Below, in pieces: positions 1 through 20,683 of a DNA stretch of 20,845 bases. Made by a program: the position numbers and the translations under genes. Under the pieces are notes generated by a model. It worked only from the letters and a program-made list of their open reading frames with translations, ran no database searches and had not been told where the DNA came from. The DNA comes from an uncultured virus (IMG/VR IMGVR_UViG_3300030060_005500) (Duplodnaviria > Heunggongvirae > Uroviricota > Caudoviricetes): the IMG/VR virus record IMGVR_UViG_3300030060_005500; one strand, written 5' to 3'. The first letter of the stretch is position 1. The number at the start of each line of letters is the position of its first letter.

Positions 1-78
1 CATGGCAAATTGTAAGTTGAGTTGAATTATCTGCGTGTAGGATACGCAGCCCCCATAAGATAAAAACTATCTACACAC

Positions 79-414
79 TCAAAGCTTCTCTTCCTTAAAC
101 ATGATACCAGGAGAGACTTCTTCGTAACCTTCTTTCAAAGGGTCAGGTTTACGATTACGTTTGGGCATCTCCACAGGTAGCAAGCGATGTTGCATATGTC
201 TGGTACCGGATGCGGAACCTGAGTCATCCCATTTTACAGAATAATAATAGTCGACTCTGCCATTGGCTTGAGTACGTTTGTCAACAGATTCGACGATACC
301 GTAACGTGGTTTGTAAGACTTATTCAGCATACGTTCCTGTGGTATGCTCGGCGTCTTCTTGAGTACACGATCACCTATCTGGTAACGTTGACCAACTTTC
401 TTGTAATTAGGCAT
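79..414 (-). CDS. Hypothetical early protein (111 aa), probable SH3/KOW/Tudor-like beta-barrel
   Basis: Start moved from 603 to ATG at 414, which overlaps the upstream stop (ATGCCTAA) and follows AAGGAGG. The pattern YQIGDRV...GIVESVD...YYYSVKWDD is typical of small SH3-like barrels (fold is inferred). Confidence 0.7.
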   Translation of the reverse strand: MPNYKKVGQRYQIGDRVLKKTPSIPQERMLNKSYKPRYGIVESVDKRTQANGRVDYYYSVKWDDSGSASGTRHMQHRLLPVEMPKRNRKPDPLKEGYEEVSPGIMFKEEKL

Positions 415-709
415 CAGGTTTCTTTTCCTCCTTTGGTTCTGTTTTAGGTTTAGATTGTTCTTTGCTGTGCAAAGTGTATTGTTTTGACAGGCCAGTGCCG
501 GATACAGACGTAAGACCCTGTACTGTCTGTTTGTGTAGGTTGTAGTTGATATTGCTCTGCAGCTTGCCAAGTTTGCCTTGAGCTGTAATAGATTCAATAC
601 CATGACTCATAGAAAGATTGACTTTGACATCACCCAGTCCGAATGGAAGTTTGATGATGGGTACTCTTTTCTTGAATCGAAAACCTTTAGTAGGTCTGTC
701 TTTAGCCAT
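407..709 (-). CDS. DUF4236-like protein (100 aa)
   Basis: Start at ATG 709 (GAGG SD, ATGGCTAA overlap with the upstream stop). GFRFKKRV...VKVNLSMSHGI...TSVSGTGLS resembles the DUF4236 pattern GFRFRK..(V/L)N.SKSG...PGTGLS, recalled from memory. Confidence 0.6.
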   Translation of the reverse strand: MAKDRPTKGFRFKKRVPIIKLPFGLGDVKVNLSMSHGIESITAQGKLGKLQSNINYNLHKQTVQGLTSVSGTGLSKQYTLHSKEQSKPKTEPKEEKKPDA

Positions 710-953
710 TGGGTTCCTCTGGTTTGTGGTCATCAGGTAGGAGGTTGTCTGTAAGAGATGATAGGTCTACGCCGTCGGGTAAGTTGTCCATCTGGAACAA
801 CTCCCCCGTCTTCTCGTCATAGTATCCTCCTACAAACCCCATTCCTTTCTGATCCGCAAACTCTTTCATCTTGGCAACCAGCTGCATCCTCTTGAGCCTG
901 TTGTGATCAATGGCATCGGGTATGCGTGGCTTGTTGTCTTTGCCTTTAGTCAT
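702..953 (-). CDS. Hypothetical early protein (83 aa)
   Basis: ORF track; GAGGT SD upstream; 8-nt start/stop overlaps at both ends. Confidence 0.8.
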   Translation of the reverse strand: MTKGKDNKPRIPDAIDHNRLKRMQLVAKMKEFADQKGMGFVGGYYDEKTGELFQMDNLPDGVDLSSLTDNLLPDDHKPEEPNG

Positions 954-1116
954 TGGGTTTACCTCTGGGTTGTTGTAAGCGTTTGAATTTGAATTCGTTG
1001 GTGATACCAGGTGCTAGTACAATGCTGACGACCACAGCATCATCTTTGATAAACACACTGGCATGACTTGGATTTGAGAAATCGTATTGCTGATGTTCAG
1101 ACTTTGTATCCTTCAT
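946..1116 (-). CDS. Small hypothetical protein (56 aa, MKDTKSEHQQYDFSNPSHASVFIKDDAVVVSIVLAPGITNEFKFKRLQQPRGKPND), not in the ORF track
   Basis: Translated by hand. It fills the gap exactly and its stop overlaps the next start (ATGACTAA). Confidence 0.7.
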   Translation of the reverse strand: MKDTKSEHQQYDFSNPSHASVFIKDDAVVVSIVLAPGITNEFKFKRLQQPRGKPND

Positions 1117-1177
1117 TAATTATAAAAAACAATAGGAGAATAGTACAGAAAAAATTCAGTGATTTCTACCTATGTTT

Positions 1178-1402
1178 TCATATGGAAGTAAAAGATTTCC
1201 TTTCGTAATAATCAGTCATTTTCTCCTTGAAATCCTTTACTGAGACACACGAAGAAACCAACACGAAATCCATGGTGATCCATGAATTACCTCTGAGTTT
1301 TTGATACTCAAGAGTGTAAGGTTTCTTACTGGGTACATGCATTACTCTGTCGGGTGTGTTATTTTCCCGAGGGTAATACCAAGGTCGAATAGTAGGTGCC
1401 AT
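1178..1402 (-). CDS. Hypothetical early protein (74 aa, MAPTIRPWYYPRE...)
   Basis: Start moved to ATG 1402 after an A/C/U-rich leader (TTCAAACTACATACATTTTT). The upstream extension coincides with a stem-loop. Confidence 0.65.
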   Translation of the reverse strand: MAPTIRPWYYPRENNTPDRVMHVPSKKPYTLEYQKLRGNSWITMDFVLVSSCVSVKDFKEKMTDYYERKSFTSI

Positions 1403-1427
1403 AAAAATGTATGTAGTTTGAATAAGA

Positions 1428-1473
1428 AACTGGGACTTACAGATGATGTTTGGGGTCATCAGCATGCCCAGCT
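1428..1473 (-). ncRNA. Intergenic structured RNA element (stem-loop, possible pseudoknot)
   Basis: Minus strand: AGCTGGG/CCCAGTT outer stem and TGATG/CATCA inner stem, starting 5 nt after the stop of 1479..1910. Confidence 0.45.
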
Positions 1474-1478
1474 AGTAG

Positions 1479-1910
1479 TTACCAAGAGCAGTAGTACAGT
1501 ATTCTCATGCCTTTCTTGAGTTCTTCTTCAGCTTTGTCGCAGAACTCGATGTCGTTTTCTCTGTAGTATTCATCTGAGGGATCACCCCAGAAAAAACCAG
1601 AGGCATCTCCATAGCCTCCATTGAGAGTCTGGTTCTTGATATCCAATCGTAATCTTTGGATGTCTTCAGCCTTCAGTTCTACGATTTCATCATTGAATGG
1701 ATCTTGCATGTATGACTGAGCCTGATAGCCTTCTCCTGTATGTGGATCAGGCTTGGCAGCATCACCATACTGACGTTTTCTCCATAGACGTTCCATCCAG
1801 CCCTGTAGGTTTGGATGTTTACGCCAGTAGTAAAGTTCTTTGTCTTTTTCCCAATCAATTGTGTTGGTGGTACCAGCTGATCGAGAAAAAGCATACTGGT
1901 CTAGTCCCAT
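1479..1910 (-). CDS. Conserved phage protein of unknown function (MGLDQY...YWRKHPNLQGWM...GFFWG...Y.CSW family)
   Basis: Motifs match a widespread phage family I recall being loosely annotated 'phosphoglycerate kinase'; at 143 aa it cannot be a true PGK. Confidence 0.85.
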   Translation of the reverse strand: MGLDQYAFSRSAGTTNTIDWEKDKELYYWRKHPNLQGWMERLWRKRQYGDAAKPDPHTGEGYQAQSYMQDPFNDEIVELKAEDIQRLRLDIKNQTLNGGYGDASGFFWGDPSDEYYRENDIEFCDKAEEELKKGMRILYYCSW

Positions 1911-1933
1911 AGTTTTAGTAATGAATTGAATAA

Positions 1934-1997
1934 TGACCTGGCATCATCAGGGCAGGGCGGTCAGTTCCTACCGACTCCCCGAAGGGAGTTTCGCCAG
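1934..1997 (-). ncRNA. Type II hammerhead ribozyme with loop I/3'-tail pseudoknot
   Basis: Minus strand: CUGGC-GAAA-CUCCC(UUCG)GGGAG-UC^GGUAGG(AACUGACCGC)CCUGCC-CUGAUGA-U-GCCAG-GUCA. All core nucleotides are present, with a GUC triplet (cut between 1973 and 1972), three stems, and UGACC in loop I complementary to the 3' GGUCA. Confidence 0.93.
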
Positions 1998-2435
1998 TTA
2001 CTTCTTGGCAGCCTCTAACTCAGCTTGCTCGAAAGCTTCTTCTTGTTCGATTTCAGCTCTTAACTCTTCAAGCTCAGTTTCAGATAGCTTTGGTGGTGCA
2101 ACTTGTGCAGGCTTAGTAGATACACGCTCGGTGTATGCATAGTTGAGAGAAATCTCAGGATGCTTGAGCGTTTTGTTCACACCATCTTGGGTGTAATGAG
2201 ATCTAATACCGGTAAGATCAATGTCACCATGGACAACTACACGGGTACCAGTTAGGTCTTCACCATTCTGGGTAGCTTTGAGCATACCGTTGTTGTCGGT
2301 GTACTTGATACGAATGCTGTTCTTCTTGCTATCCTCTGCGGCAACAGTGACAGCAAGGAAGGTATCGTACTTGTCTTTGACACCATCGACGACTTTGACA
2401 TTGATGATGTTGCCAGTAAAAGTAGCTTTCTGCAT
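1998..2435 (-). CDS. SSB-like OB-fold protein (145 aa)
   Basis: Start moved to ATG 2435. MQKATFTGNI, FLAVTVA and GTRVVVHGDI parallel the SSB strands (MNKVILVGNL, NFSLA, GSLVYVEGRL); acidic C-terminal region. Confidence 0.6.
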   Translation of the reverse strand: MQKATFTGNIINVKVVDGVKDKYDTFLAVTVAAEDSKKNSIRIKYTDNNGMLKATQNGEDLTGTRVVVHGDIDLTGIRSHYTQDGVNKTLKHPEISLNYAYTERVSTKPAQVAPPKLSETELEELRAEIEQEEAFEQAELEAAKK

Positions 2436-2480
2436 TTGATTTACAGTTGAGTAGGTGGTGCCCATCTCCACAGGGGGCAA

Positions 2481-2534
2481 GGTCGAAGGAGGGAATCGAA
2501 CCCTCCACTGGTGAACCAGTTCCAACATCTCGAC
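2481..2534 (-). ncRNA. Minimal tRNA-like structure (no D-stem, no canonical anticodon loop, no encoded CCA)
   Basis: Minus strand: GUCGAG-AUGUUGGA-ACUGG(UUCA)CCAGU-GGAGGG(UUCGAUU)CCCUCC-UUCGAC-C. Acceptor 6 bp plus T-stem 6 bp gives 12 bp; canonical T-loop; GG in a D-loop-like linker. Confidence 0.75.
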
Positions 2535-2537
2535 TAT

Positions 2538-2618
2538 CTATCTCCCATATGCTCCAACGTTCTTAAGGAATATATAGAGCAGGATGGTGATACAGATGAT
2601 GACGATGAGTGTAGTCAT
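2538..2618 (-). CDS. Single-TM micropeptide (26 aa, MTTLIVIICITILLYIFLKNVGAYGR), not in the ORF track
   Basis: ATGA overlap with the upstream stop; about 15 hydrophobic residues followed by K/R; stop lies 3 nt before the tRNA-like element. Confidence 0.65.
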   Translation of the reverse strand: MTTLIVIICITILLYIFLKNVGAYGR

Positions 2619-2803
2619 GCTATGAAGTCAGGATCACTGAGTACAGTTAAACCGCATTGCATAACTTTGGCAAGATCCTTGTCACACTCTGGCATATCTT
2701 GAATCTGGAAAGACCAGAACAGGAAGTTATCTGAGTTGTGACCTAACTGTTGTACCTCAGATAATATCTGGGTGAGTTCAGGAGTTAGTACAGCAAGAGA
2801 CAT
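2615..2803 (-). CDS. Hypothetical early protein (62 aa)
   Basis: ORF track; GAGGT SD in CAACCCAGAGGTAACT-ATG. Confidence 0.75.
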   Translation of the reverse strand: MSLAVLTPELTQILSEVQQLGHNSDNFLFWSFQIQDMPECDKDLAKVMQCGLTVLSDPDFIA

Positions 2804-2827
2804 AGTTACCTCTGGGTTGAATTGAAT

Positions 2828-2886
2828 TAAGTTATGAGGGGAATCCCTCAGTCTGCCTCAGAGAAGCAGAGGGAGAGAATCACTTA
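2828..2886 (-). ncRNA. Structured leader or processing element with alternative folds
   Basis: Hairpins UCUGC/GCAGA and UGAGGG(AUUC)CCCUCA closed by UAAGU/ACUUA; alternative long helix UCUCUC-CC-UCUGC/GCAGA-CU-GAGGGA. Confidence 0.4.
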
Positions 2887-2893
2887 CCCAAGT

Positions 2894-2909
2894 ATTTAAA
2901 TCCCATACA
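2894..2909 (-). promoter_or_regulatory. Repeated motif TGTATGGGATTTAAAT, copy A (candidate early promoter or operator)
   Basis: Exact 16-nt match to 3177-3192; intergenic, upstream of a leftward gene. Confidence 0.5.
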
Positions 2910-2933
2910 GCTAGGAGCGTAGTCAGGGAGTTG

Positions 2934-3143
2934 TTAGAAAGGAATATATTCAGTAGATTTATGGACTAATAACTGACAGTCACGTAATTGAGACCAGCAT
3001 CCACTACCAAGATATATACTTCTACTTCTAAGCTTGAAGCGTAAATAATAGAAGGCATATGCAAAAGGCATTAGCAGATGATTGGTGCGACATACAACAC
3101 TGTCATAATCACCAGAAGAAACTACGAGAAATAATTCAGACAT
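2934..3143 (-). CDS. Hypothetical early protein (69 aa)
   Basis: ORF track; AT-rich leader; lies between two copies of the repeated motif. Confidence 0.6.
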   Translation of the reverse strand: MSELFLVVSSGDYDSVVCRTNHLLMPFAYAFYYLRFKLRSRSIYLGSGCWSQLRDCQLLVHKSTEYIPF

Positions 3144-3176
3144 AATTAATAAATAAGTAGTATCGAGTACTCAAAA

Positions 3177-3192
3177 ATTTAAATCCCATACA
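3177..3192 (-). promoter_or_regulatory. Repeated motif TGTATGGGATTTAAAT, copy B
   Basis: Exact 16-nt match to 2894-2909, 33 nt upstream of ATG 3143. Confidence 0.5.
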
Positions 3193-3231
3193 CATCTGCG
3201 AGTGGGCAAATGGTGTACAGGATCTATTTAA

Positions 3232-3306
3232 CGAGCGAACGAAGTGAGCGAGTAGCGGTCCGTTGTTATATACAACAGCAGCGAGCGTTAGCGAGCGGGG
3301 TGCACG
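3232..3306 (+). repeat. GAGCG repeat cluster 1 (pas/ssi-like)
   Basis: CGAGCGAACGAAGTGAGCGAGTAGCGG and AGCGAGCGTTAGCGAGCGGGGTGCACG, all on the + strand. Confidence 0.6.
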
Positions 3307-3446
3307 TCAAGCACTTCTGCTGCTCGATGCATCTTCTGAGATACATACTTACGACTAGTGTCCAGCCAGGCGTTGCCGGCTGAACGTGCAGTAGTGTACA
3401 TAGGCTTGAAGTCAGCCTTGAGACCTTTAATAGTGTTGGAAAACAT
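3288..3446 (-). CDS. Small hypothetical protein (52 aa, MFSNTIKGLKADFKPMYTTARSAGNAWLDTSRKYVSQKMHRAAEVLDVHPAR), not in the ORF track
   Basis: Translated by hand. The leader ACATTTATTGCC-ATG resembles ACAATTTGCC-ATG at position 3, and codon style matches the neighbouring genes. Preferred over the track ORF 3266..3451. Confidence 0.6.
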   Translation of the reverse strand: MFSNTIKGLKADFKPMYTTARSAGNAWLDTSRKYVSQKMHRAAEVLDVHPAR

Positions 3447-3623
3447 GGCAATAAATGTTAACGATGTAATGATTTGGTTAAGCTCGAAGACGTAACCTGA
3501 GTAGTAGCAACGTTTGTTACAGGTGATTACAGTTCTATCTCGGCTCTACTGAGCGGAGGATCTTGACCTAATTTCGTGCGGGAATCAAGGGAAACTCGAC
3601 GAAAACTCGGCGAAAGATCAAAT

Positions 3624-3651
3624 AATGTAACTAATTGTAAACAAATGTTAC
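3624..3651 (-). promoter_or_regulatory. HLR1-type (RpaB) direct repeat
   Basis: Minus strand GTAACATT-TG-TTTACAAT-TA-GTTACATT. The last two octamers match (G/T)TTACA(T/A)(T/A)-N2-(G/T)TTACA(T/A)(T/A) exactly, and a third half-site is in 10-bp phase. Confidence 0.55.
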
Positions 3652-3672
3652 TATCATTAACTCTATTCTTCT

Positions 3673-3681
3673 AATCCCATA
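3673..3681 (-). promoter_or_regulatory. Partial copy C of the repeated motif (TATGGGATT)
   Basis: 9-nt core shared with copies A and B, upstream of the first leftward gene. Confidence 0.35.
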
Positions 3682-3705
3682 GATATATGCCGAAGTTAAG
3701 TACCT

Positions 3706-3745
3706 AGCGAGCGACCAACGGAAGCGAGCGGAGGAGGGGTGCACG
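3706..3745 (+). repeat. GAGCG repeat cluster 2 (pas/ssi-like)
   Basis: AGCGAGCG-ACCAACGGA-AGCGAGCG-GAGGA-GGGGTGCACG, an imperfect direct repeat of 3280-3306. Confidence 0.6.
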
Positions 3746-3928
3746 GTACTTCTTTTTTTTCTATACGGTATGTGCAACGGGCGGGTGGGTGGAGAAGAGT
3801 CGAGTAATTTTGTACCCTATTTGGAGCTATAAGGAGCCGATTTTGTAGTAAAAAACCCTAATTAGCCCAAAAAATCACCCAAAAGTGCCGACCTTCAGGT
3901 GATTAAAGTTTCGATTATTAGATATTAG

Positions 3929-4141
3929 TTATTTTTCTTTGCTTTTCTTAAATTTACCGGCCGCTTTTGCCGCTTTACTGAATGCTTCCCCATCTGGAAC
4001 TTGAAATGCCAGTTCTTTCTTAGCATTTGTAACAAAATCACGTACTTCCAGGGAGTCTTTACCCTGTGCTGCCATGTCTAAAGCTTTGTTTTTAATAGCT
4101 TCTAGTCCATCAACTTTATTTTGGCGGGATTCAACATCCAT
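3929..4141 (-). CDS. Hypothetical helical protein (70 aa) with basic tail
   Basis: ORF track; divergent from the late operon; possible TG-A-TAGCAT -10 on the minus strand near 4175-4183. Confidence 0.75.
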   Translation of the reverse strand: MDVESRQNKVDGLEAIKNKALDMAAQGKDSLEVRDFVTNAKKELAFQVPDGEAFSKAAKAAGKFKKSKEK

Positions 4142-4240
4142 TATTGGTATTTTCTAAGTAATTTCCCTGATTTAATGCTATCACGAGTAGATTTGTTACT
4201 CATAGAATGGACAGAAGAGAAATGTGACGGCTAAGTGTAG

Positions 4241-4822
4241 ATGTCTTCCTCATATCAGGCACAATATTATTCACAACAGCCAGATAATAACAATCTGGGG
4301 GTTTTAGCAACTGGAACCCTAGCAGGAGGTGGTCTTGCTACTCTTGCAGCTTTAACTTTGATGAGAAGAGGTAAAAATCTCTCTGCAACAACGGATCTTA
4401 GTCAGAAAGGTGCGTCTGCTATATCAAATGTAGCTGGAAAGAAATATACTGTAAAAAAGTCAGGTCCAGTGCCACCTAGCACACCTGCAGAAAATGTATT
4501 TACTAATATTCCTGAAGGACAAACTCAACCTGTGGTAAGACCAAGTGATACTGTTCTATCTCCAGGTAGATCTCTTCTGTCAGGACCGGCTTTATCTCAA
4601 GCTGGTAAACCTGCTGAACTTCCAAAACCTGTTAAAGGATCTATACAAGAAAGAGAAGCTCAAGATAATTTAAGAAGATATATAAGTACGGTACAAGCAG
4701 GGATATTAGCTAAAGATGAAACGTATTATGCAGCACTTAAACAAGCTAAAGACTTAGGTATAGGAGTTACTTTAGATCCGTCTATGAAACGTACAAATAA
4801 AGACAATAAAAGAAGATCATGA
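4241..4822 (+). CDS. Hypothetical protein with N-terminal Gly-rich hydrophobic segment (putative virion/ejection protein)
   Basis: LGVLATGTLAGGGLATLAALTLMRR; first gene of the + strand module. Confidence 0.7.
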   Translation: MSSSYQAQYYSQQPDNNNLGVLATGTLAGGGLATLAALTLMRRGKNLSATTDLSQKGASAISNVAGKKYTVKKSGPVPPSTPAENVFTNIPEGQTQPVVRPSDTVLSPGRSLLSGPALSQAGKPAELPKPVKGSIQEREAQDNLRRYISTVQAGILAKDETYYAALKQAKDLGIGVTLDPSMKRTNKDNKRRS

Positions 4823-13455: not shown

Positions 13456-14982
13456 GTGCCTTCTTATACACATCTTGCTTATAGGCGTAACGCTAAAGCG
13501 GCGGCTCGTAAGCAGCAGATTAAGAAACCTAAAAATTTAGAATCCATACAGAAAGCTAGAGAAGATTTTGGATATTTCTGTGAATTTGTAGCCGATAAAG
13601 CACCAGCAGAACATCATAAGACGTGGCATAGACATTTCATAACTAACGAAAATAGTAGCTGTTTATTAAAGATTGCAGGCCCCAATATTGATCTGTTAGC
13701 TCCCAGAGGGTCAGCTAAATCGACTGTATTAGGACTTCTTACCGCTTGGGCTATTGGTATTCATACACAGGCTAAACAGCCCTTACAAGTCTTATATCTG
13801 TCTTACACCGTTGATATTGCCAGATCTAAGTCAGCAACAATCAAAAGAATCATCGAAAGTAAAAGATATCAGGAAGTTTTTCCAAAAGTAAGATTAATGA
13901 AAAACGTGACCAGTAATGAATACTGGTCGATAGATCATAGGTTTGCAGGAATAGATACTACCGGAGAAGAACAGTTTACATTATGTGCAGCTGGTCTGAA
14001 GGGTTCTGTTACATCTAAACGTTCTCATCTGGTTATGATTGATGACGCTATAAAATCATCAGCTGATATTGCTAATCCAGATATTAGGAATCAGATGAAA
14101 GAGAACTGGAATGCTGTCATAGCTCCCACTATGTTTGAAGGAGCTAGAGCTATTTGTTTAGGTACTAGGTTTAGGCATGATGATATCCATTCCACTACTT
14201 TTAATGAACAGAACAATTGGACGCAGATTGTTTTATCTGCGATATTAAATGATTCTAAAACAGGAGAGGAAGAATCTTACTGGCCTGAGATGTGGTCTCT
14301 TGAATATCTAAAAGAAAAGAAGAGACAGGCACCGATAGCTTTTTCTTTCCAATACATGAATCAGATAGTTAGACAGAATGAATTATCACTAGCTCCAGAG
14401 TTAATTGTTAAAGCGGAGATATCTACTGAGTTTGATACGTTAGGTATAGGAGTCGATTTATCAGCTGGAGTAAAAGAAAGAAATGATTACACTGTCATGG
14501 TGTTAGGCGGACGAATAGAAGATCGTATTCACATAATTGATTATCGGCGTATTAGGGTTATGGGTAACTTAGAAAAATTAGATGCCCTAAAAGAGCTTCT
14601 ATACGACTGGTCGATAATAGGTAAAGATGCTAATGAAAATTATTTTCCCACCTACTCTACATGTGATATCTGGTCAGAGGCTGTGCAATATCAAGCATCT
14701 TTGGAAGCTGACTTTAAACGAGTATGTCAAAACAATGAAGGTTTATATAATTTAATCTGGCATCCCGTGAAAGGATTCAGAGCAGATAAATTAGCACGTT
14801 TTAGAGGAATAATGGGTATGTTCGAAGATAGAAAGATAGTGTTTAATAGGTTTAGAAACTTTACCAGTATGTTTGAAGAACTTACCAACTTTGGTGTAAG
14901 TGGACATGATGATTGCGTTGATGCTTTAGTTTGGCTTGTAAACGGATTAGCTCGTAAAGGACAACTTCATTTAGACTTTTAA
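13456..14982 (+). CDS. terL: Terminase large subunit
   Basis: Walker A LLAPRGSAKST, Walker B LVMIDD, motif III LGTR, RNase H-like GIGVDLS and HDDCVDAL; GTG start. Confidence 0.95.
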   Translation: MPSYTHLAYRRNAKAAARKQQIKKPKNLESIQKAREDFGYFCEFVADKAPAEHHKTWHRHFITNENSSCLLKIAGPNIDLLAPRGSAKSTVLGLLTAWAIGIHTQAKQPLQVLYLSYTVDIARSKSATIKRIIESKRYQEVFPKVRLMKNVTSNEYWSIDHRFAGIDTTGEEQFTLCAAGLKGSVTSKRSHLVMIDDAIKSSADIANPDIRNQMKENWNAVIAPTMFEGARAICLGTRFRHDDIHSTTFNEQNNWTQIVLSAILNDSKTGEEESYWPEMWSLEYLKEKKRQAPIAFSFQYMNQIVRQNELSLAPELIVKAEISTEFDTLGIGVDLSAGVKERNDYTVMVLGGRIEDRIHIIDYRRIRVMGNLEKLDALKELLYDWSIIGKDANENYFPTYSTCDIWSEAVQYQASLEADFKRVCQNNEGLYNLIWHPVKGFRADKLARFRGIMGMFEDRKIVFNRFRNFTSMFEELTNFGVSGHDDCVDALVWLVNGLARKGQLHLDF

Positions 14983-16622: not shown

Positions 16623-18965
16623 ATGGGTAACAACGATCCAAAAACTAGACTAAAAGAGATAGTAGACTCTTACCTCAATAAAGATGGTGGAGGAATGATA
16701 GACACTGGGATAGTGGCTTCACATCTTGCCCAGATGAAACTTTTCGGAATCAGACAAGGTGTAGAATTCTTCCCAGCTCAGGATAACTTTGGAAATCAAA
16801 GAAAAGATTTCGTAGATAGAGTGATTAAATATAACCAGCTTGATACTAGACTAGATTCTATATGGGATTATTTTCTTTGTGATGGACAAGGCATTTTTTA
16901 CATCAGACCCACTAAGACTAACTACAGACTATATTATTTTCGTAAGCATGAATATAGAAGCTATTACAATATTGACGGCCAGCTTGATGAAGTTGTAATT
17001 ATCTATAGCTATAAAGTAAGACAGGGCTCAGGTTATCAACAGGAGGTAATTAATCAAAGTATTAGTGGTCCTGATATGTTAGGGGCAGGAGGAGCTAAGA
17101 GATATATAAGATTATCTATTAAGAAGAAAATAATACAAGAGACCCATTCTGAAGGTGAAATATCCTTTGATTCCACCTATCAGGGATTAGCTGGTAAAAC
17201 TAAGACATTTACTAATACTCTAGGATTTATTCCTTGTGTAGAGATATTCAATAATGCAAAAGGATTCGCAGCTGAAGGCGTAGGTGAATTTGATGCGTTA
17301 GCTAATCATATCTGCACTCATGATGAAATGATACGCACTATGCGTAAGAACGTTCAGTTCTTTGGAAATCCTACATTATTATCCTCAAGACCTAAAACAG
17401 ATTTAATGGAGTCAGGAGAGTCTGTTGTTCAAAGGCCATCTATTGCAGCTAACTCTGGTTTTGCAGGAATGAACCCATTAAGCCAGTCTCGTTTTAAAGC
17501 TGATCCTCTAGCTCGTGGTGTTGATGGGCAGATACGAGTACCAAGAGTTATAGCTAATTTAGAACCGAATGATCGTGTAGGTTACATTGTTCCTGACGCT
17601 ATCACTGGTGATCAGAATTCTTTTTCTAGACAATATAGAGAAGAAATAAGAACAGCATTAGGTGGTGTTGACGAGTTGTCGATATCAGCTGGAGTAACAG
17701 CCACTGAATATAAATCTCTATTTGGTAGAGTTGCAGCCACTGCTAAGAAAAAGTCTGCTTCTATATATACATACGGTTTATGTCGTTGCTTAGAGTTAAT
17801 TATTTTCCAAGAAGAGCAACTCTTCCGTGAGACATTAGCTGCTGCTGTTGGGTTAGAAAAACCAGTTGATTTACCTGAGGATGCTTCTCCAGAAGAAATG
17901 GAATTATATGAAGGAGCTATGAAGTTTTATGAGGAGCAGATAAAGCAGTTACTCATGGCTTCTTTACAGGCTCAGCAGATACCGCCCGGAGTTAAAGGTT
18001 TAATCCCTGACGGGGATGTCAGCATCCAGTGGAGATGGCTTGGTCCTGTTTACGAAGATTCAACACAAGATACACTGAATAATTCTATTGTTGTAAGGAA
18101 TCTTCAAGAATTAGGCGTTGATAGCATAGAAGCATTGAAATACCTCTTTCCGTCTAAAACGGATGAGGAAAGGGCAGCCATGTTATCAGGGTTTCCTTTC
18201 AGAATGGTGAACGAACTGCAGGGTGCATACTCTCAGTTTGCAAAGTTAGTGGGGGGAATGATGCAGACCCCTCATCCGCAATCACCGGATTTACCGATGG
18301 CTGCAGATCCAAGATTGGATTTAACACCATATCTGTATCGAACATTAGAAGCATTACAAAAGGAGATGAGTTATGCAGGACGCTACCGTCCAATCGACCC
18401 CACAGATGAGCCAAGCACCAGCAGCGACAGTAGCTCCAAGCAGTTACGTGGCACAGGCTCCGCAGGCACCGGCACCAACTCAGGCACCGGCACCTCAGGC
18501 TTATCAAGTGGGTACGAGCTACCCACAAGCGGTACCTCAGGCAGCCCCCAGCTACCAATCAAGCCCTACTCAGTACGCCCCCCAATCCCAACCGGCGGCG
18601 GCACCGGAGGGCAATCCATGGGAATCGGCGTTCAACAAGGTAATGAACGTCCTGAGTACACCAGTTCAATCCCCGTTCCAGGGTCAACCCTCTCAGACGG
18701 AGACACAATACGCACCAGCGAATTACGGACAAGCCAACAGCGGCCTAACTACGCCAGCATCGGCTCCCCAGACCTTGTCAGCCAGCCAGGTATCCTCAGC
18801 CAACTCTTCCCAAACCTCCTCGAATCTCTCAGCGGCGGAGCTAGACGCAATCCAGACACAGATAGGAATGAGTCCAGAAAGCAGACAGGTGATGGACGCG
18901 TTCGGGGTAGAGGCACCAGCCGTTCTAAACCAGTACGCCCTAAACCTAGAAGGGATGCTAGATAG
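16623..18965 (+). CDS. Portal protein with a long C-terminal extension overprinted on the scaffold gene
   Basis: About 590-aa globular region between TerL and scaffold/MCP; LGFIPCVEIFN, GEFDAL and QFFGNPTL resemble portal motifs. Confidence 0.75.
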   Translation: MGNNDPKTRLKEIVDSYLNKDGGGMIDTGIVASHLAQMKLFGIRQGVEFFPAQDNFGNQRKDFVDRVIKYNQLDTRLDSIWDYFLCDGQGIFYIRPTKTNYRLYYFRKHEYRSYYNIDGQLDEVVIIYSYKVRQGSGYQQEVINQSISGPDMLGAGGAKRYIRLSIKKKIIQETHSEGEISFDSTYQGLAGKTKTFTNTLGFIPCVEIFNNAKGFAAEGVGEFDALANHICTHDEMIRTMRKNVQFFGNPTLLSSRPKTDLMESGESVVQRPSIAANSGFAGMNPLSQSRFKADPLARGVDGQIRVPRVIANLEPNDRVGYIVPDAITGDQNSFSRQYREEIRTALGGVDELSISAGVTATEYKSLFGRVAATAKKKSASIYTYGLCRCLELIIFQEEQLFRETLAAAVGLEKPVDLPEDASPEEMELYEGAMKFYEEQIKQLLMASLQAQQIPPGVKGLIPDGDVSIQWRWLGPVYEDSTQDTLNNSIVVRNLQELGVDSIEALKYLFPSKTDEERAAMLSGFPFRMVNELQGAYSQFAKLVGGMMQTPHPQSPDLPMAADPRLDLTPYLYRTLEALQKEMSYAGRYRPIDPTDEPSTSSDSSSKQLRGTGSAGTGTNSGTGTSGLSSGYELPTSGTSGSPQLPIKPYSVRPPIPTGGGTGGQSMGIGVQQGNERPEYTSSIPVPGSTLSDGDTIRTSELRTSQQRPNYASIGSPDLVSQPGILSQLFPNLLESLSGGARRNPDTDRNESRKQTGDGRVRGRGTSRSKPVRPKPRRDAR

Positions 18966-19519: not shown

Positions 19520-20683
19520 GTGTTCATTGATAATGACTTTCCAAAAATATTAGGTGCGGAACTATATCGTCCCCACCCAGCTTATGTTGCGGAAATGGCT
19601 ACCGAACCTGTTGTTGTTCATGACTTCAGCAGACAGCCTGGTCAAACCGTTCAGCTTGATAGATACAAATTCTGGGGTACACCAGGTACGAAAGATTCTA
19701 GAGAGCGTATTTCTGATCAGACAATTGGTACCGCAAATAGCCGTAACATCACAAAAGAAAAGGTACTTGTAGTACTTAAAGAGTACACAGGTCCTGCAGA
19801 TCCAGGTGATGCTACACAGCCAAGCACATTCAAGATAGCTCGTGAAACATTAGTTACAGCACAACGTCTTCTTTTAGACACTGGTAACTTAAACATGTTT
19901 CACCAGAGTATCGGCTCTCTAACCCTTTTAGACGATTATAGAAGGTGGCGTGATAGAGTCTTCATCGACGAACTTGCAAAAGCAGAAGCTAACGGTTTAT
20001 CCTCCTCTACACAGGGTGGATATTATTTTGCCGGTAGCAAAACAAAAGATTCTTCTGGACGTATTTCATATACAGCAACAGAATATGGTAATCAAGTGCA
20101 GCAGTTCTCAGTTAAGACTGATCTTTTAACTGTTGTTAAAGACTTACGTAAGCGTAACGTTCCAACATATGCAGATGGTCTGTATCGTTGTTTAGTTGAT
20201 CCATCTTTCATGATGCATCTGCGTCGTGACAGTGACTTCAGAGAAATCGCTCGTTACTCTGGTGCTCCAGGACAGGGAATGTATATGGGTAACCCCATGA
20301 TTCCTAACAACGCTAGTTTCTTCCAAGGACCTCAGGCTGGTCAGGCTTACTTCCTAGCAGGAGAGCCAGTTATGCCAACTGGTGTTCAGTTTGAAGGTGT
20401 TAAGTTCTTCGAGACTACTAACTTCCCAACTAAGAACGTAACAGCATCTATTGATGGTGGTAGTAGCTATTCTTCATTAGAAGTAGCACAAGGATTCTTC
20501 TTTGGACCACAATCTCTCGGTGTTGGAATTGGAGGACCAAACGCACAGGTACTAATTAATAACAACGACGATTTTAGCCGCTTTATCATTCTGATTTGGC
20601 AACTATACGCTGGTTTTGAAATTCTTAATAAGGACTTCATCACAACTGCATTTAGTTTCTTAACAGATGACGGTAGTATCTAG
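19520..20683 (+). CDS. Major capsid protein (HK97 fold, N4-gp56-like)
   Basis: 387 aa; GGAGG SD with GTG start; PGQTVQLDRY E-loop-type motif; LRKRNVP...GLYRCLVDP...LRRD pattern; follows portal and scaffold. Confidence 0.9.
   Translation: MFIDNDFPKILGAELYRPHPAYVAEMATEPVVVHDFSRQPGQTVQLDRYKFWGTPGTKDSRERISDQTIGTANSRNITKEKVLVVLKEYTGPADPGDATQPSTFKIARETLVTAQRLLLDTGNLNMFHQSIGSLTLLDDYRRWRDRVFIDELAKAEANGLSSSTQGGYYFAGSKTKDSSGRISYTATEYGNQVQQFSVKTDLLTVVKDLRKRNVPTYADGLYRCLVDPSFMMHLRRDSDFREIARYSGAPGQGMYMGNPMIPNNASFFQGPQAGQAYFLAGEPVMPTGVQFEGVKFFETTNFPTKNVTASIDGGSSYSSLEVAQGFFFGPQSLGVGIGGPNAQVLINNNDDFSRFIILIWQLYAGFEILNKDFITTAFSFLTDDGSI

Follow-up and report, generated by a model that had tools for sequence, protein, structure and literature searches.

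How might a phage free the message of a single gene from a long transcript by means of signals that the RNA itself carries? The question is raised by a locus on the minus strand of a 20,845-nt stretch of viral DNA (IMG/VR record IMGVR_UViG_3300030060_005500; this whole stretch is hereafter called the window), in which an open reading frame (ORF) for a protein resembling single-stranded DNA-binding proteins (SSB-like) is preceded by a compact tRNA mimic and followed directly by a hammerhead ribozyme. A reading made from the sequence alone (below, the sequence-only reading) had proposed that host tRNA nucleases cut upstream of this gene and that the ribozyme cuts downstream. Having examined the locus, its relatives, and the occurrence of its parts elsewhere, we consider it narrowly probable that the arrangement provides RNA punctuation of the replication-module transcript, with host RNase P and RNase Z cutting at the mimic and the ribozyme cutting itself.

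Arrangement of the locus

The order of elements put forward in the sequence-only reading holds at each coordinate on the minus strand. Reading 5′ to 3′, a hydrophobic micropeptide ORF of 26 amino acids (aa; 2618-2538) ends with the stop codon TAG (2540-2538), separated by the 3-nt spacer AUA (2537-2535) from a 54-nt tRNA-like minihelix (2534-2481) that has an acceptor/T-arm fold, the discriminator C2481, and no CCA. There follow a UUG (2480-2478) overlapping a 5-bp hairpin (2479-2459; stem 2479-2475 with 2463-2459), the two together spanning 2480-2459; the SSB-like gene (2435-1998), an ORF of 145 aa with a predicted OB fold and an acidic helical tail; the type II hammerhead (1997-1934), which starts at C1997 directly after the TAA and whose predicted cleavage site is GUC/G at 1973/1972; and a 143-aa ORF of unknown function (1910-1479), which would be the first cistron of the proposed 5′-OH product.

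To place this arrangement in a comparative setting, we used relatives of the 145-aa protein. A protein alignment scanned against metagenome contigs gave 42 loci at 37-100% identity, and the viral collection scanned for the same protein gave only one, a contig that we call G001; conservation counts below refer to 44 sources, namely, the window plus 43 related loci. The neighbourhood of the gene varies among them: the micropeptide ORF lies upstream of the SSB-like gene in 25 loci (and downstream instead in locus L025, by tblastn), and a homologue of the 143-aa ORF lies downstream of the hammerhead in only 17, with other genes elsewhere.

A hammerhead ribozyme at the stop codon

Searched in E-value mode over 801 nt, the Rfam model Hammerhead_II (RF02276) aligns end to end with positions 1996-1932 of the minus strand at 31.8 bits (E 2e-4), and in a whole-window Rfam scan the hammerhead is the sole match at E<=0.5 (E 0.0052); a scan of the window in gathering mode returned no match, the hammerhead included. 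The hammerheads of five relatives score 30.4-34.4 bits against the same model. The catalytic core is complete, with CUGAUGA at 1950-1944, GAAA at 1992-1989, and GUC at 1975-1973, which places the predicted cleavage after C1973. Stem II (1997-1993 with 1942-1938, 5 bp) is open, stem III (1988-1975) is capped by a UUCG loop, and stem I (1972-1951) is also capped; with stems I and III closed by loops and stem II open, the topology is that of type II. In addition, UGAC in loop I (1963-1960) is complementary to GUCA in the 3′ tail (1937-1934), forming a potential pseudoknot.

A covariance model built for the element (R2) finds it in 41 of the 44 sources, two of these matches being clipped by contig ends. 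Two of the three misses, L018 and L037, are loci in which the gene runs off the contig, and the third, L025, has a different gene order. Wherever a hammerhead is present, it starts 1-2 bases past the stop codon of the gene. Across 21 distinct sequences, 97.7% of cells in the 21 modelled pairs (17 helix plus 4 pseudoknot) hold standard pairs, as compared with 39-52% when the partner strand is slid; three pairs have changed on both sides, and in the CUGANGA motif only N7 varies (U, C, or A). The pseudoknot is paired in 95.2% of cells, with three of its four pairs invariant and hence no support from covariation.

Even in loci whose gene has no more than 57-60% identity over its first 330 nt, the hammerhead retains at least 78% nucleotide identity to that of the window. 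As judged from these comparisons, the element is tied to the 3′ end of the SSB-like gene and not to the neighbouring gene, because the gene downstream differs among loci. L023 and L024 combine a hammerhead 98.5-100% identical to that of the window with an adjacent gene whose nucleotide identity is just 68-77%, a contrast suggestive of a recombination joint at or close to the boundary of gene and ribozyme. A further match to the hammerhead pattern, in the viral contig L056, was dismissed: it lies in GC-rich coding sequence and has no CUGANGA.

A minihelix with the acceptor and T arms of a tRNA

On the 5′ side of the gene, the strand 2534-2529 (GUCGAG) pairs with 2487-2482 (UUCGAC) to form a 6-bp acceptor stem. 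Within it lie a 9-nt linker (2528-2520) containing a conserved UUGG, a central hairpin of 4 bp with a 4-nt loop (2519-2508), and a T arm (2506-2488, GGAGGG-UUCGAUU-CCCUCC) with a 6-bp stem and a canonical loop. The acceptor and T stems thus make up a 6+6 bp stack (12 bp) next to the discriminator C2481, and CCA is not encoded. The element has no D arm or 7-nt anticodon loop of a tRNA cloverleaf and does carry a UUCRANN T arm on an acceptor stem; ARAGORN reports no tRNA for the window, nor for the array loci described below. Rfam matches to the mimic are weak, with mascRNA-menRNA (RF01684) at 23.4 bits (E 0.033; gathering score 42.5) and tRNA-Sec at 20.9 bits both falling far under their cut-offs, and by this measure the mimic is an analogue, and not a member, of the mascRNA family. 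A scan for the acceptor/T-arm pattern gives one match in the window, where 50 mononucleotide shuffles give a mean of 0.14 (maximum 2).

A covariance model (R1) built from ten long-form mimic sequences finds the mimic at the same site upstream of the gene in 36 of the 44 sources. These comprise 27 full 54-nt copies, 7 copies of a 40-nt short form, and 2 copies clipped by contig ends; the short form has no central hairpin and keeps the 6+6 bp stack with an 8-nt linker that contains GG. Acceptor strands occur as GUCGAG/UUCGAC, GACGAG/CUCGUC, ACUGAG/CUCAGU, and GCUGAG/CUCAGC, such that pairs 1, 2, and 3 have each changed on both sides, and the T loop at the gene site reads UUCRAYU throughout. In the model-fitted alignment (A6), which is biased toward the modelled structure and was used after MAFFT had misaligned the short form, pairing holds in 96% of cells and falls to 49-69% on sliding the partner. 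The mimic is present beside proteins that are only 37-42% identical to the one in the window. An alternative 5′ acceptor strand for the window-type mimic, GUUGGA, is not preferred: it pairs poorly in L020 and L024, and it is the outer strand that covaries.

At first glance, such an element might be taken for the remnant of an attP site or for a tRNA gene in decay, without function today, given that tRNA-like fragments near integrases are usually attP sites, as in the available part of a report on halovirus HF2 (PMC8707807), and that neither Rfam nor ARAGORN sees a tRNA here. We regard this as highly improbable. The 5′ acceptor strand is present and covaries, mimic copies occur three or four to a genome in arrays, and conservation persists beside the divergent proteins just mentioned. 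Moreover, no integrase family was found among the ORFs scanned in the window and in the first 15 kb of G001, and a 25-nt stretch of the T arm and acceptor has no exact match in 185,579 species genomes, a search that covered exact matches only and a set from which the true host may be missing.

The mimic as part of a reused intercistronic module

The sequence that follows the mimic is likewise constrained. UUG after the discriminator is invariant in 25 aligned regions upstream of the gene, and, more generally, UU(G/A) at this position is invariant at the gene’s site and recurs in most other copies of the mimic. A hairpin starts 1-4 nt past the discriminator in 19 of 22 distinct module tails, and 16 of the 22 fold at -6 kcal/mol or better, as do only 289 of 3000 random 28-mers from the same loci; the three tails with no qualifying hairpin belong to the short-form clade, in which the hairpin has just 3-4 bp. 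The stem of the window-type hairpin shows compensated changes (GCCC/GGGC to GCCU/AGGC), and several unrelated covarying stems occur among the hairpins that follow mimics.

The same combination is found away from the SSB-like gene. A search of viral contigs with a pattern of T arm plus tail identified, beyond G001, three contigs (G002, G003, and G004; 35-57 kb) resembling Synechococcus phage S-EIVl, to which we return below; each has 3-4 matches to R1 within ~1 kb, between small ORFs, and no hammerhead was found on searching these three. In G001 itself (29.7 kb), the tRNA mimic and the hammerhead occur once each. Three other S-EIVl-like viral contigs have 3-5 tRNA-like modules arrayed between small ORFs, at loci L053 (1185-2384), L052 (714-1636), and L050 (890-1525). 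In L053 and L052, the ORFs are 48-112 aa in length and most ORF-ORF junctions hold a mimic and UU(G/A), after which comes a hairpin whose stems covary and whose loop is ACUGA, often with the leader CUUACUUCGACAUCAUG next. Mimics of a second class, with the T loop UGCAAGC or UGCAACU, are present at junctions in L025, L050, L052, and L053 (for example, GGUAGA...CCAGG-UGCAAGC-CCUGG-UCUACC). We note in passing that the ACUGA loop of many array hairpins is the start of the ACUGAG acceptor strand, so that an alternative pairing with CUCAGU is conceivable. Because the array contigs have mimics and no hammerhead, the mimic module appears from these comparisons to be a general intercistronic device of this marine lineage, and the hammerhead to be specific to the SSB-like gene.

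In all modules found, the upstream ORF ends at -6 to +2 relative to acceptor base 1, and a start codon lies 49-61 nt downstream. This placement bears on an alternative that we regard as unlikely, though not negligible, in which the hammerhead is a real processing site and the mimic with its hairpin is no nuclease signal at all, serving instead as a 5′-untranslated cassette for translation or RNA stability. Such a cassette might recruit ribosomes or tRNA-binding factors to starts poor in Shine-Dalgarno sequence, or might couple upstream termination to downstream initiation. Consistent with this, the module always sits between a stop codon and the next start, the window-type leader ahead of the SSB-like gene has no obvious Shine-Dalgarno sequence, the conserved leader CUUACUUCGACAUCAUG follows the hairpins in arrays, and the stop codon often falls within the acceptor strand, so that terminating ribosomes must melt the mimic. 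However, the features that have been kept (the 12-bp stack, the T loop, the GG linker, the missing CCA, and the U after the discriminator) are exactly the ones that RNase P and RNase Z recognize, nothing resembling an anticodon or a ribosome-binding site is conserved, and the short form loses the central hairpin yet keeps the stack.

A model for RNA-encoded segmentation

In recognizing their substrates, RNase P and RNase Z read a 12-bp acceptor/T stack, the T loop, a contact with the D loop, the lack of CCA, and a U after the discriminator. We favour RNA punctuation because the conserved parts of the mimic are those that these two enzymes read. In such a model, the mimic would show host RNase P and RNase Z the 12-bp stack and T loop, and its GG linker could imitate the D-loop contact. 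A cut after C2481 would give an mRNA with one or two U residues at its 5′ terminus and the hairpin immediately after them, a candidate protective 5′ end. Self-cleavage of the hammerhead after C1973 would leave a 25-nt 3′ untranslated region ending in the c(UUCG)g hairpin and a 2′,3′-cyclic phosphate, and the downstream cistrons would then begin with a 5′-OH and the stem I hairpin. The outcome would be a separately stabilised monocistronic message, uncoupled from its neighbours, for a protein needed in stoichiometric amounts. Cyanobacterial RNase Z, as described by Ceballos-Chavez and Vioque in 2005, reportedly chooses its site in a sequence-dependent manner.

How far do the relatives bear this out? 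The expectation that both flanks would be conserved around orthologues was largely borne out, with compensatory changes and at protein identities down to 37%; it failed in L030-L036, in which the mimic is absent. Relatives that keep the gene and lose its flanking structures, which the sequence-only reading had named among the observations that would tell against it, are thus a minority, with the hammerhead present in 41 of the 44 sources, the mimic in 36, and seven loci lacking the mimic. The pairing of mimic and hammerhead around this gene is common without being obligatory, and the mimic, given its occurrence in G002-G004, is not specific to the gene.

Several observations weigh against the punctuation model, in whole or in part. 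Seven loci (L030-L036, 46-49% protein identity) have the gene and the hammerhead with no mimic, L025 has no hammerhead after the gene, and the S-EIVl genome, when searched, yielded neither element. Many of the loci are near-identical, such that covariation comes from about four lineages. For the hammerhead, the score of 31.8 bits lies below the RF02276 gathering cut-off of 37, and an extra U (U1943) stands between A9 and G10.1 in the window, although it is absent in several relatives and an extra U at that position is tolerated in viroid hammerheads. For the mimic, a U-U mismatch occurs at acceptor pair 2 in four sequence variants (9 loci). Folding of the single sequences is unexceptional for both (z = -1.4 for the mimic region and -2.0 for the hammerhead), and the case for the two elements thus rests on conservation and covariation. 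The UGA stop codon is often inside the acceptor strand of the ACUGAG and GCUGAG variants, which makes an RNase P cut awkward for a simple release model because the upstream ORF would lose its stop. The base at -1 of the modules is often A, where bacterial RNase P prefers U. The host assignment draws only on similarity of the large terminase. Finally, cleavage at the mimic and at the hammerhead is in each case a prediction, as are the enzymes involved and any effect on mRNA stability.

Relation to known systems

The idea that a tRNA or tRNA-like fold within a longer transcript can act as a cutting signal for host tRNA-processing enzymes is familiar from the tRNA punctuation of mitochondrial polycistronic transcripts and from MALAT1, whose 3′ end is formed together with mascRNA (Rfam RF01684) by RNase P and RNase Z; mascRNA-menRNA is also the top non-ribozyme Rfam match of our mimic. 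The present case differs in being found in a bacteriophage, in using a 40-54 nt minihelix without an anticodon arm, in its dedicated hairpin and its repetition as a module, and in that cleavage here is predicted. A second parallel is the early polycistronic mRNA of phage T7, which is processed by RNase III. There, as proposed here, signals for a host nuclease between cistrons give discrete mRNAs with stabilising terminal hairpins, but the T7 signals are RNase III hairpins, in place of which our locus has a tRNA mimic and a ribozyme.

Acceptor/T-arm mimicry in RNAs other than tRNA has precedents as well. As far as the available part of a review describes, RNase P cuts the phage M3 and C4 RNAs, viral tRNA-like structures, and polycistronic mRNAs (PMC11143913). 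The examples given there, phi80 M3, the C4 antisense precursor of P1/P7, and intercistronic RNase P sites in E. coli operon mRNAs, share the mimicry with our element; they are, in that part of the text, single regulatory RNAs or weak sites, and not repeated intercistronic modules, and have no ribozyme partner (PMC11143913).

For the other flank, the closest precedent is that of hammerheads flanking genes in prophage transcripts, which cleave in vitro and for which the pseudoknot between loop I and the 3′ tail has been described in type II (Perreault et al. 2011, PMC3088659). The element in the window shares with these prophage type II hammerheads (RF02276) the catalytic core, the permuted topology, and the loop I/3′-tail pseudoknot, and shares the role proposed for them, the conversion of long phage transcripts into single-gene mRNAs (PMC3088659). 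At the same time, the published prophage cases, in the part of the paper available, have two or three hammerheads around a gene, in contrast to the single copy here, on the 3′ side only (PMC3088659). Our hammerhead, unlike those, keeps a set position one base past the stop codon in a single gene family, with a tRNA mimic on the 5′ side. Relative to prophage and phage type II hammerheads, the copy in the window is also a weaker match (31.8 bits, cut-off 37), with a stem II of 5 bp and the extra U after A9.

The sequence-only reading knew of no description of the pairing. In the accessible text of the literature on phage hammerheads and tRNA-like RNAs, no description was found of the mimic-hairpin module, whether singly, in arrays, or paired with a hammerhead; hammerheads flanking single prophage genes are published (PMC3088659). 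What appears new is the tRNA-mimic partner, and hammerheads beside genes in prophage transcripts were already known. A catalogue of 10,006 candidate viral structured RNAs exists (PMC10690425), and the mimic could be among the unnamed candidates in its supplementary listing.

If the cuts occur as predicted, a phage transcript would be segmented wholly by RNA-encoded signals, one exploiting the universal tRNA-processing enzymes of the host and one self-acting. This would extend tRNA punctuation from organelles to bacteriophages, with mimics in place of real tRNAs, and would supply a role for one natural type II hammerhead among the many that lack a known one. The module would also be a compact (40-54 nt), portable means of setting mRNA 5′ ends in cyanobacteria, with possible use in operon engineering.

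Mosaic loci and a possible role in recombination

The loci that depart from the standard arrangement do so in instructive ways. In L030-L036, the place of the mimic is taken by a hairpin element (CCCUCUGC...GCAGACUGAGGG) whose homologue in the window lies at ~2885-2835 on the minus strand, ahead of a 62-aa ORF (2803-2615). In L025 (1-1312), the order is mimic, 115-aa ORF, class-2 mimic, SSB-like gene, and micropeptide ORF. The first ~10 codons of the SSB-like gene have been replaced there, with the joint exactly at the class-2 mimic and no obvious ATG, and after the SSB-like gene and micropeptide a UUCG hairpin and a T-rich terminator-like hairpin stand in the hammerhead’s stead.

Observations of this kind are relevant to the proposal that the modules work chiefly on the DNA, as recombination joints or as mobile regulatory cassettes by which small early genes are shuffled, with RNA structure secondary; the PeSL cassettes of T4-type phages offer a comparison. 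There are several copies of the module per genome and the neighbours vary on both sides of the cassette, and the conserved hammerheads of L023 and L024 beside their divergent genes, the shuffled order and exact joint of L025, and the repeat-flanked 69-aa ORF described below (absent in L018) all fit. We nonetheless think it quite unlikely that this is the main function, since pairing is maintained by compensatory changes and the T loop holds to its consensus, which argues for selection on the folded RNA. Roles in recombination and in processing are mutually compatible. In a broader form of the punctuation model, which we rate as a serious possibility though short of probable, the S-EIVl-like lineage would punctuate its early/replication transcripts with portable mimic-hairpin modules and a hammerhead, the modules doubling as joints for gene shuffling; each cistron would then receive defined, stabilised ends without a phage-encoded nuclease.

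Further upstream in the window, on the minus strand, the sequence GTATGGGATTTAAAT (2908-2894) is followed by a two-hairpin element (CUGCUUCUCUGAGGCAG, GAGGGAUUCCCCUC; ~2885-2835), the pair (2908-2835) marking a possible transcript start; the two-hairpin element has no Rfam match and precedes the 62-aa ORF mentioned above. In L018, the stretch just before the two-hairpin element contains a weak match to R1 (20.6 bits), a degenerate T-arm-like hairpin. There are two exact copies of GTATGGGATTTAAAT, at 3191-3177 and 2908-2894, around a 69-aa ORF (3143-2934). Because L018 has one copy of GTATGGGATTTAAAT and lacks the ~283 nt between the copies, the 69-aa ORF has the look of a cassette that was acquired or deleted through recombination at the two repeats. 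A third site occurs in the window at 3 mismatches, and at least three matches at that tolerance were seen in 11 of 100 shuffles. GTATGGGATTTAAAT could be a promoter; over window positions 1-4400, a sigma-70 and terminator scan gave promoter-like sites in lower number than shuffled sequence did, with nothing at the RNA elements.

Gene calls that read through the mimic

The tRNA mimic and hairpin are open in frame with the SSB-like gene, so that an ORF of 176 aa (2528-1998, minus strand) is called in the window; ORF finders and public gene calls lengthen the protein by at least 31 residues. Extended calls of 156-205 aa are found in public sets (P0001, P0004, P0022, P0024, and P0027), and P0001 passes even through the micropeptide, whose stop codon is altered there. 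These extensions through the mimic are an annotation artefact; the practical lesson is that gene callers reading through such a mimic yield falsely extended proteins. A conserved ORF starting at the invariant UUG was considered and ruled out: the spacing from UUG to ATG is 52, 50, or 49 nt, with differences that are not multiples of 3.

The SSB-like protein

An AlphaFold2 model of the 145-aa protein, made from 18 aligned sequences, has a mean predicted local distance difference test score (pLDDT) of 79 and a topology of three strands, a helix, two long strands, and a C-terminal helix. It forms a five-stranded barrel with the helix between strands 3 and 4, as in an OB fold, and superposes on SSB structures, at 8-18% sequence identity to the structures matched. 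At the sequence level, the protein has no Pfam family at E<=0.01 and no PHROG, and its best match among Protein Data Bank (PDB) sequences is an unrelated protein at E 0.22. We found 40 homologues, all metagenomic and none with a Pfam domain. The predicted structure points to an SSB-like OB-fold protein and putative DNA binder, which differs from the bacterial SSB and PriB proteins in having no Pfam, PHROG, or PDB match to them at the sequence level and in a C-terminal tail that is an acidic helix, variable among homologues.

The phage and its relatives

Pfam and PHROGs scans of the ORFs in the window show a run of small unannotated ORFs on the minus strand from ~3150 to 79. On the plus strand, they identify a large terminase (TerL, 13456-14982), a virion structural protein (16623-18965), and a major head protein (19520-20683), which mark the window as a tailed-phage genome. 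The closest record to the window is G001, an IMG/VR contig with 53% of sampled 31-mers in common. In G001, the minus-strand genes run on into a replication module (a PcfJ-like protein, a DNA methyltransferase, a GP88-family protein, and a family A DNA polymerase), and we take the minus-strand transcript of the window to be a replication-module transcript because G001 places the DNA polymerase and methyltransferase downstream on the same strand.

Nothing matched among 50,697 phage records, either in a blastn search with window positions 1400-3000 or in a tblastn search with the SSB-like protein. The TerL of the window shares 79.5% identity with its counterpart in Synechococcus phage S-EIVl (79-kb genome, arctic lake), and all remaining phage matches to it are below 24% identity, so that we treat the window as belonging to a marine S-EIVl-like phage, probably a cyanophage. 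The terminase coding sequence of S-EIVl (KJ410740.1 54080-56620) is 2541 nt in length, as compared with 1527 nt in the window, and the match between them is split in two pieces; the S-EIVl protein would thus carry a large insertion without a counterpart in the window, possibly an intein or an extra domain.

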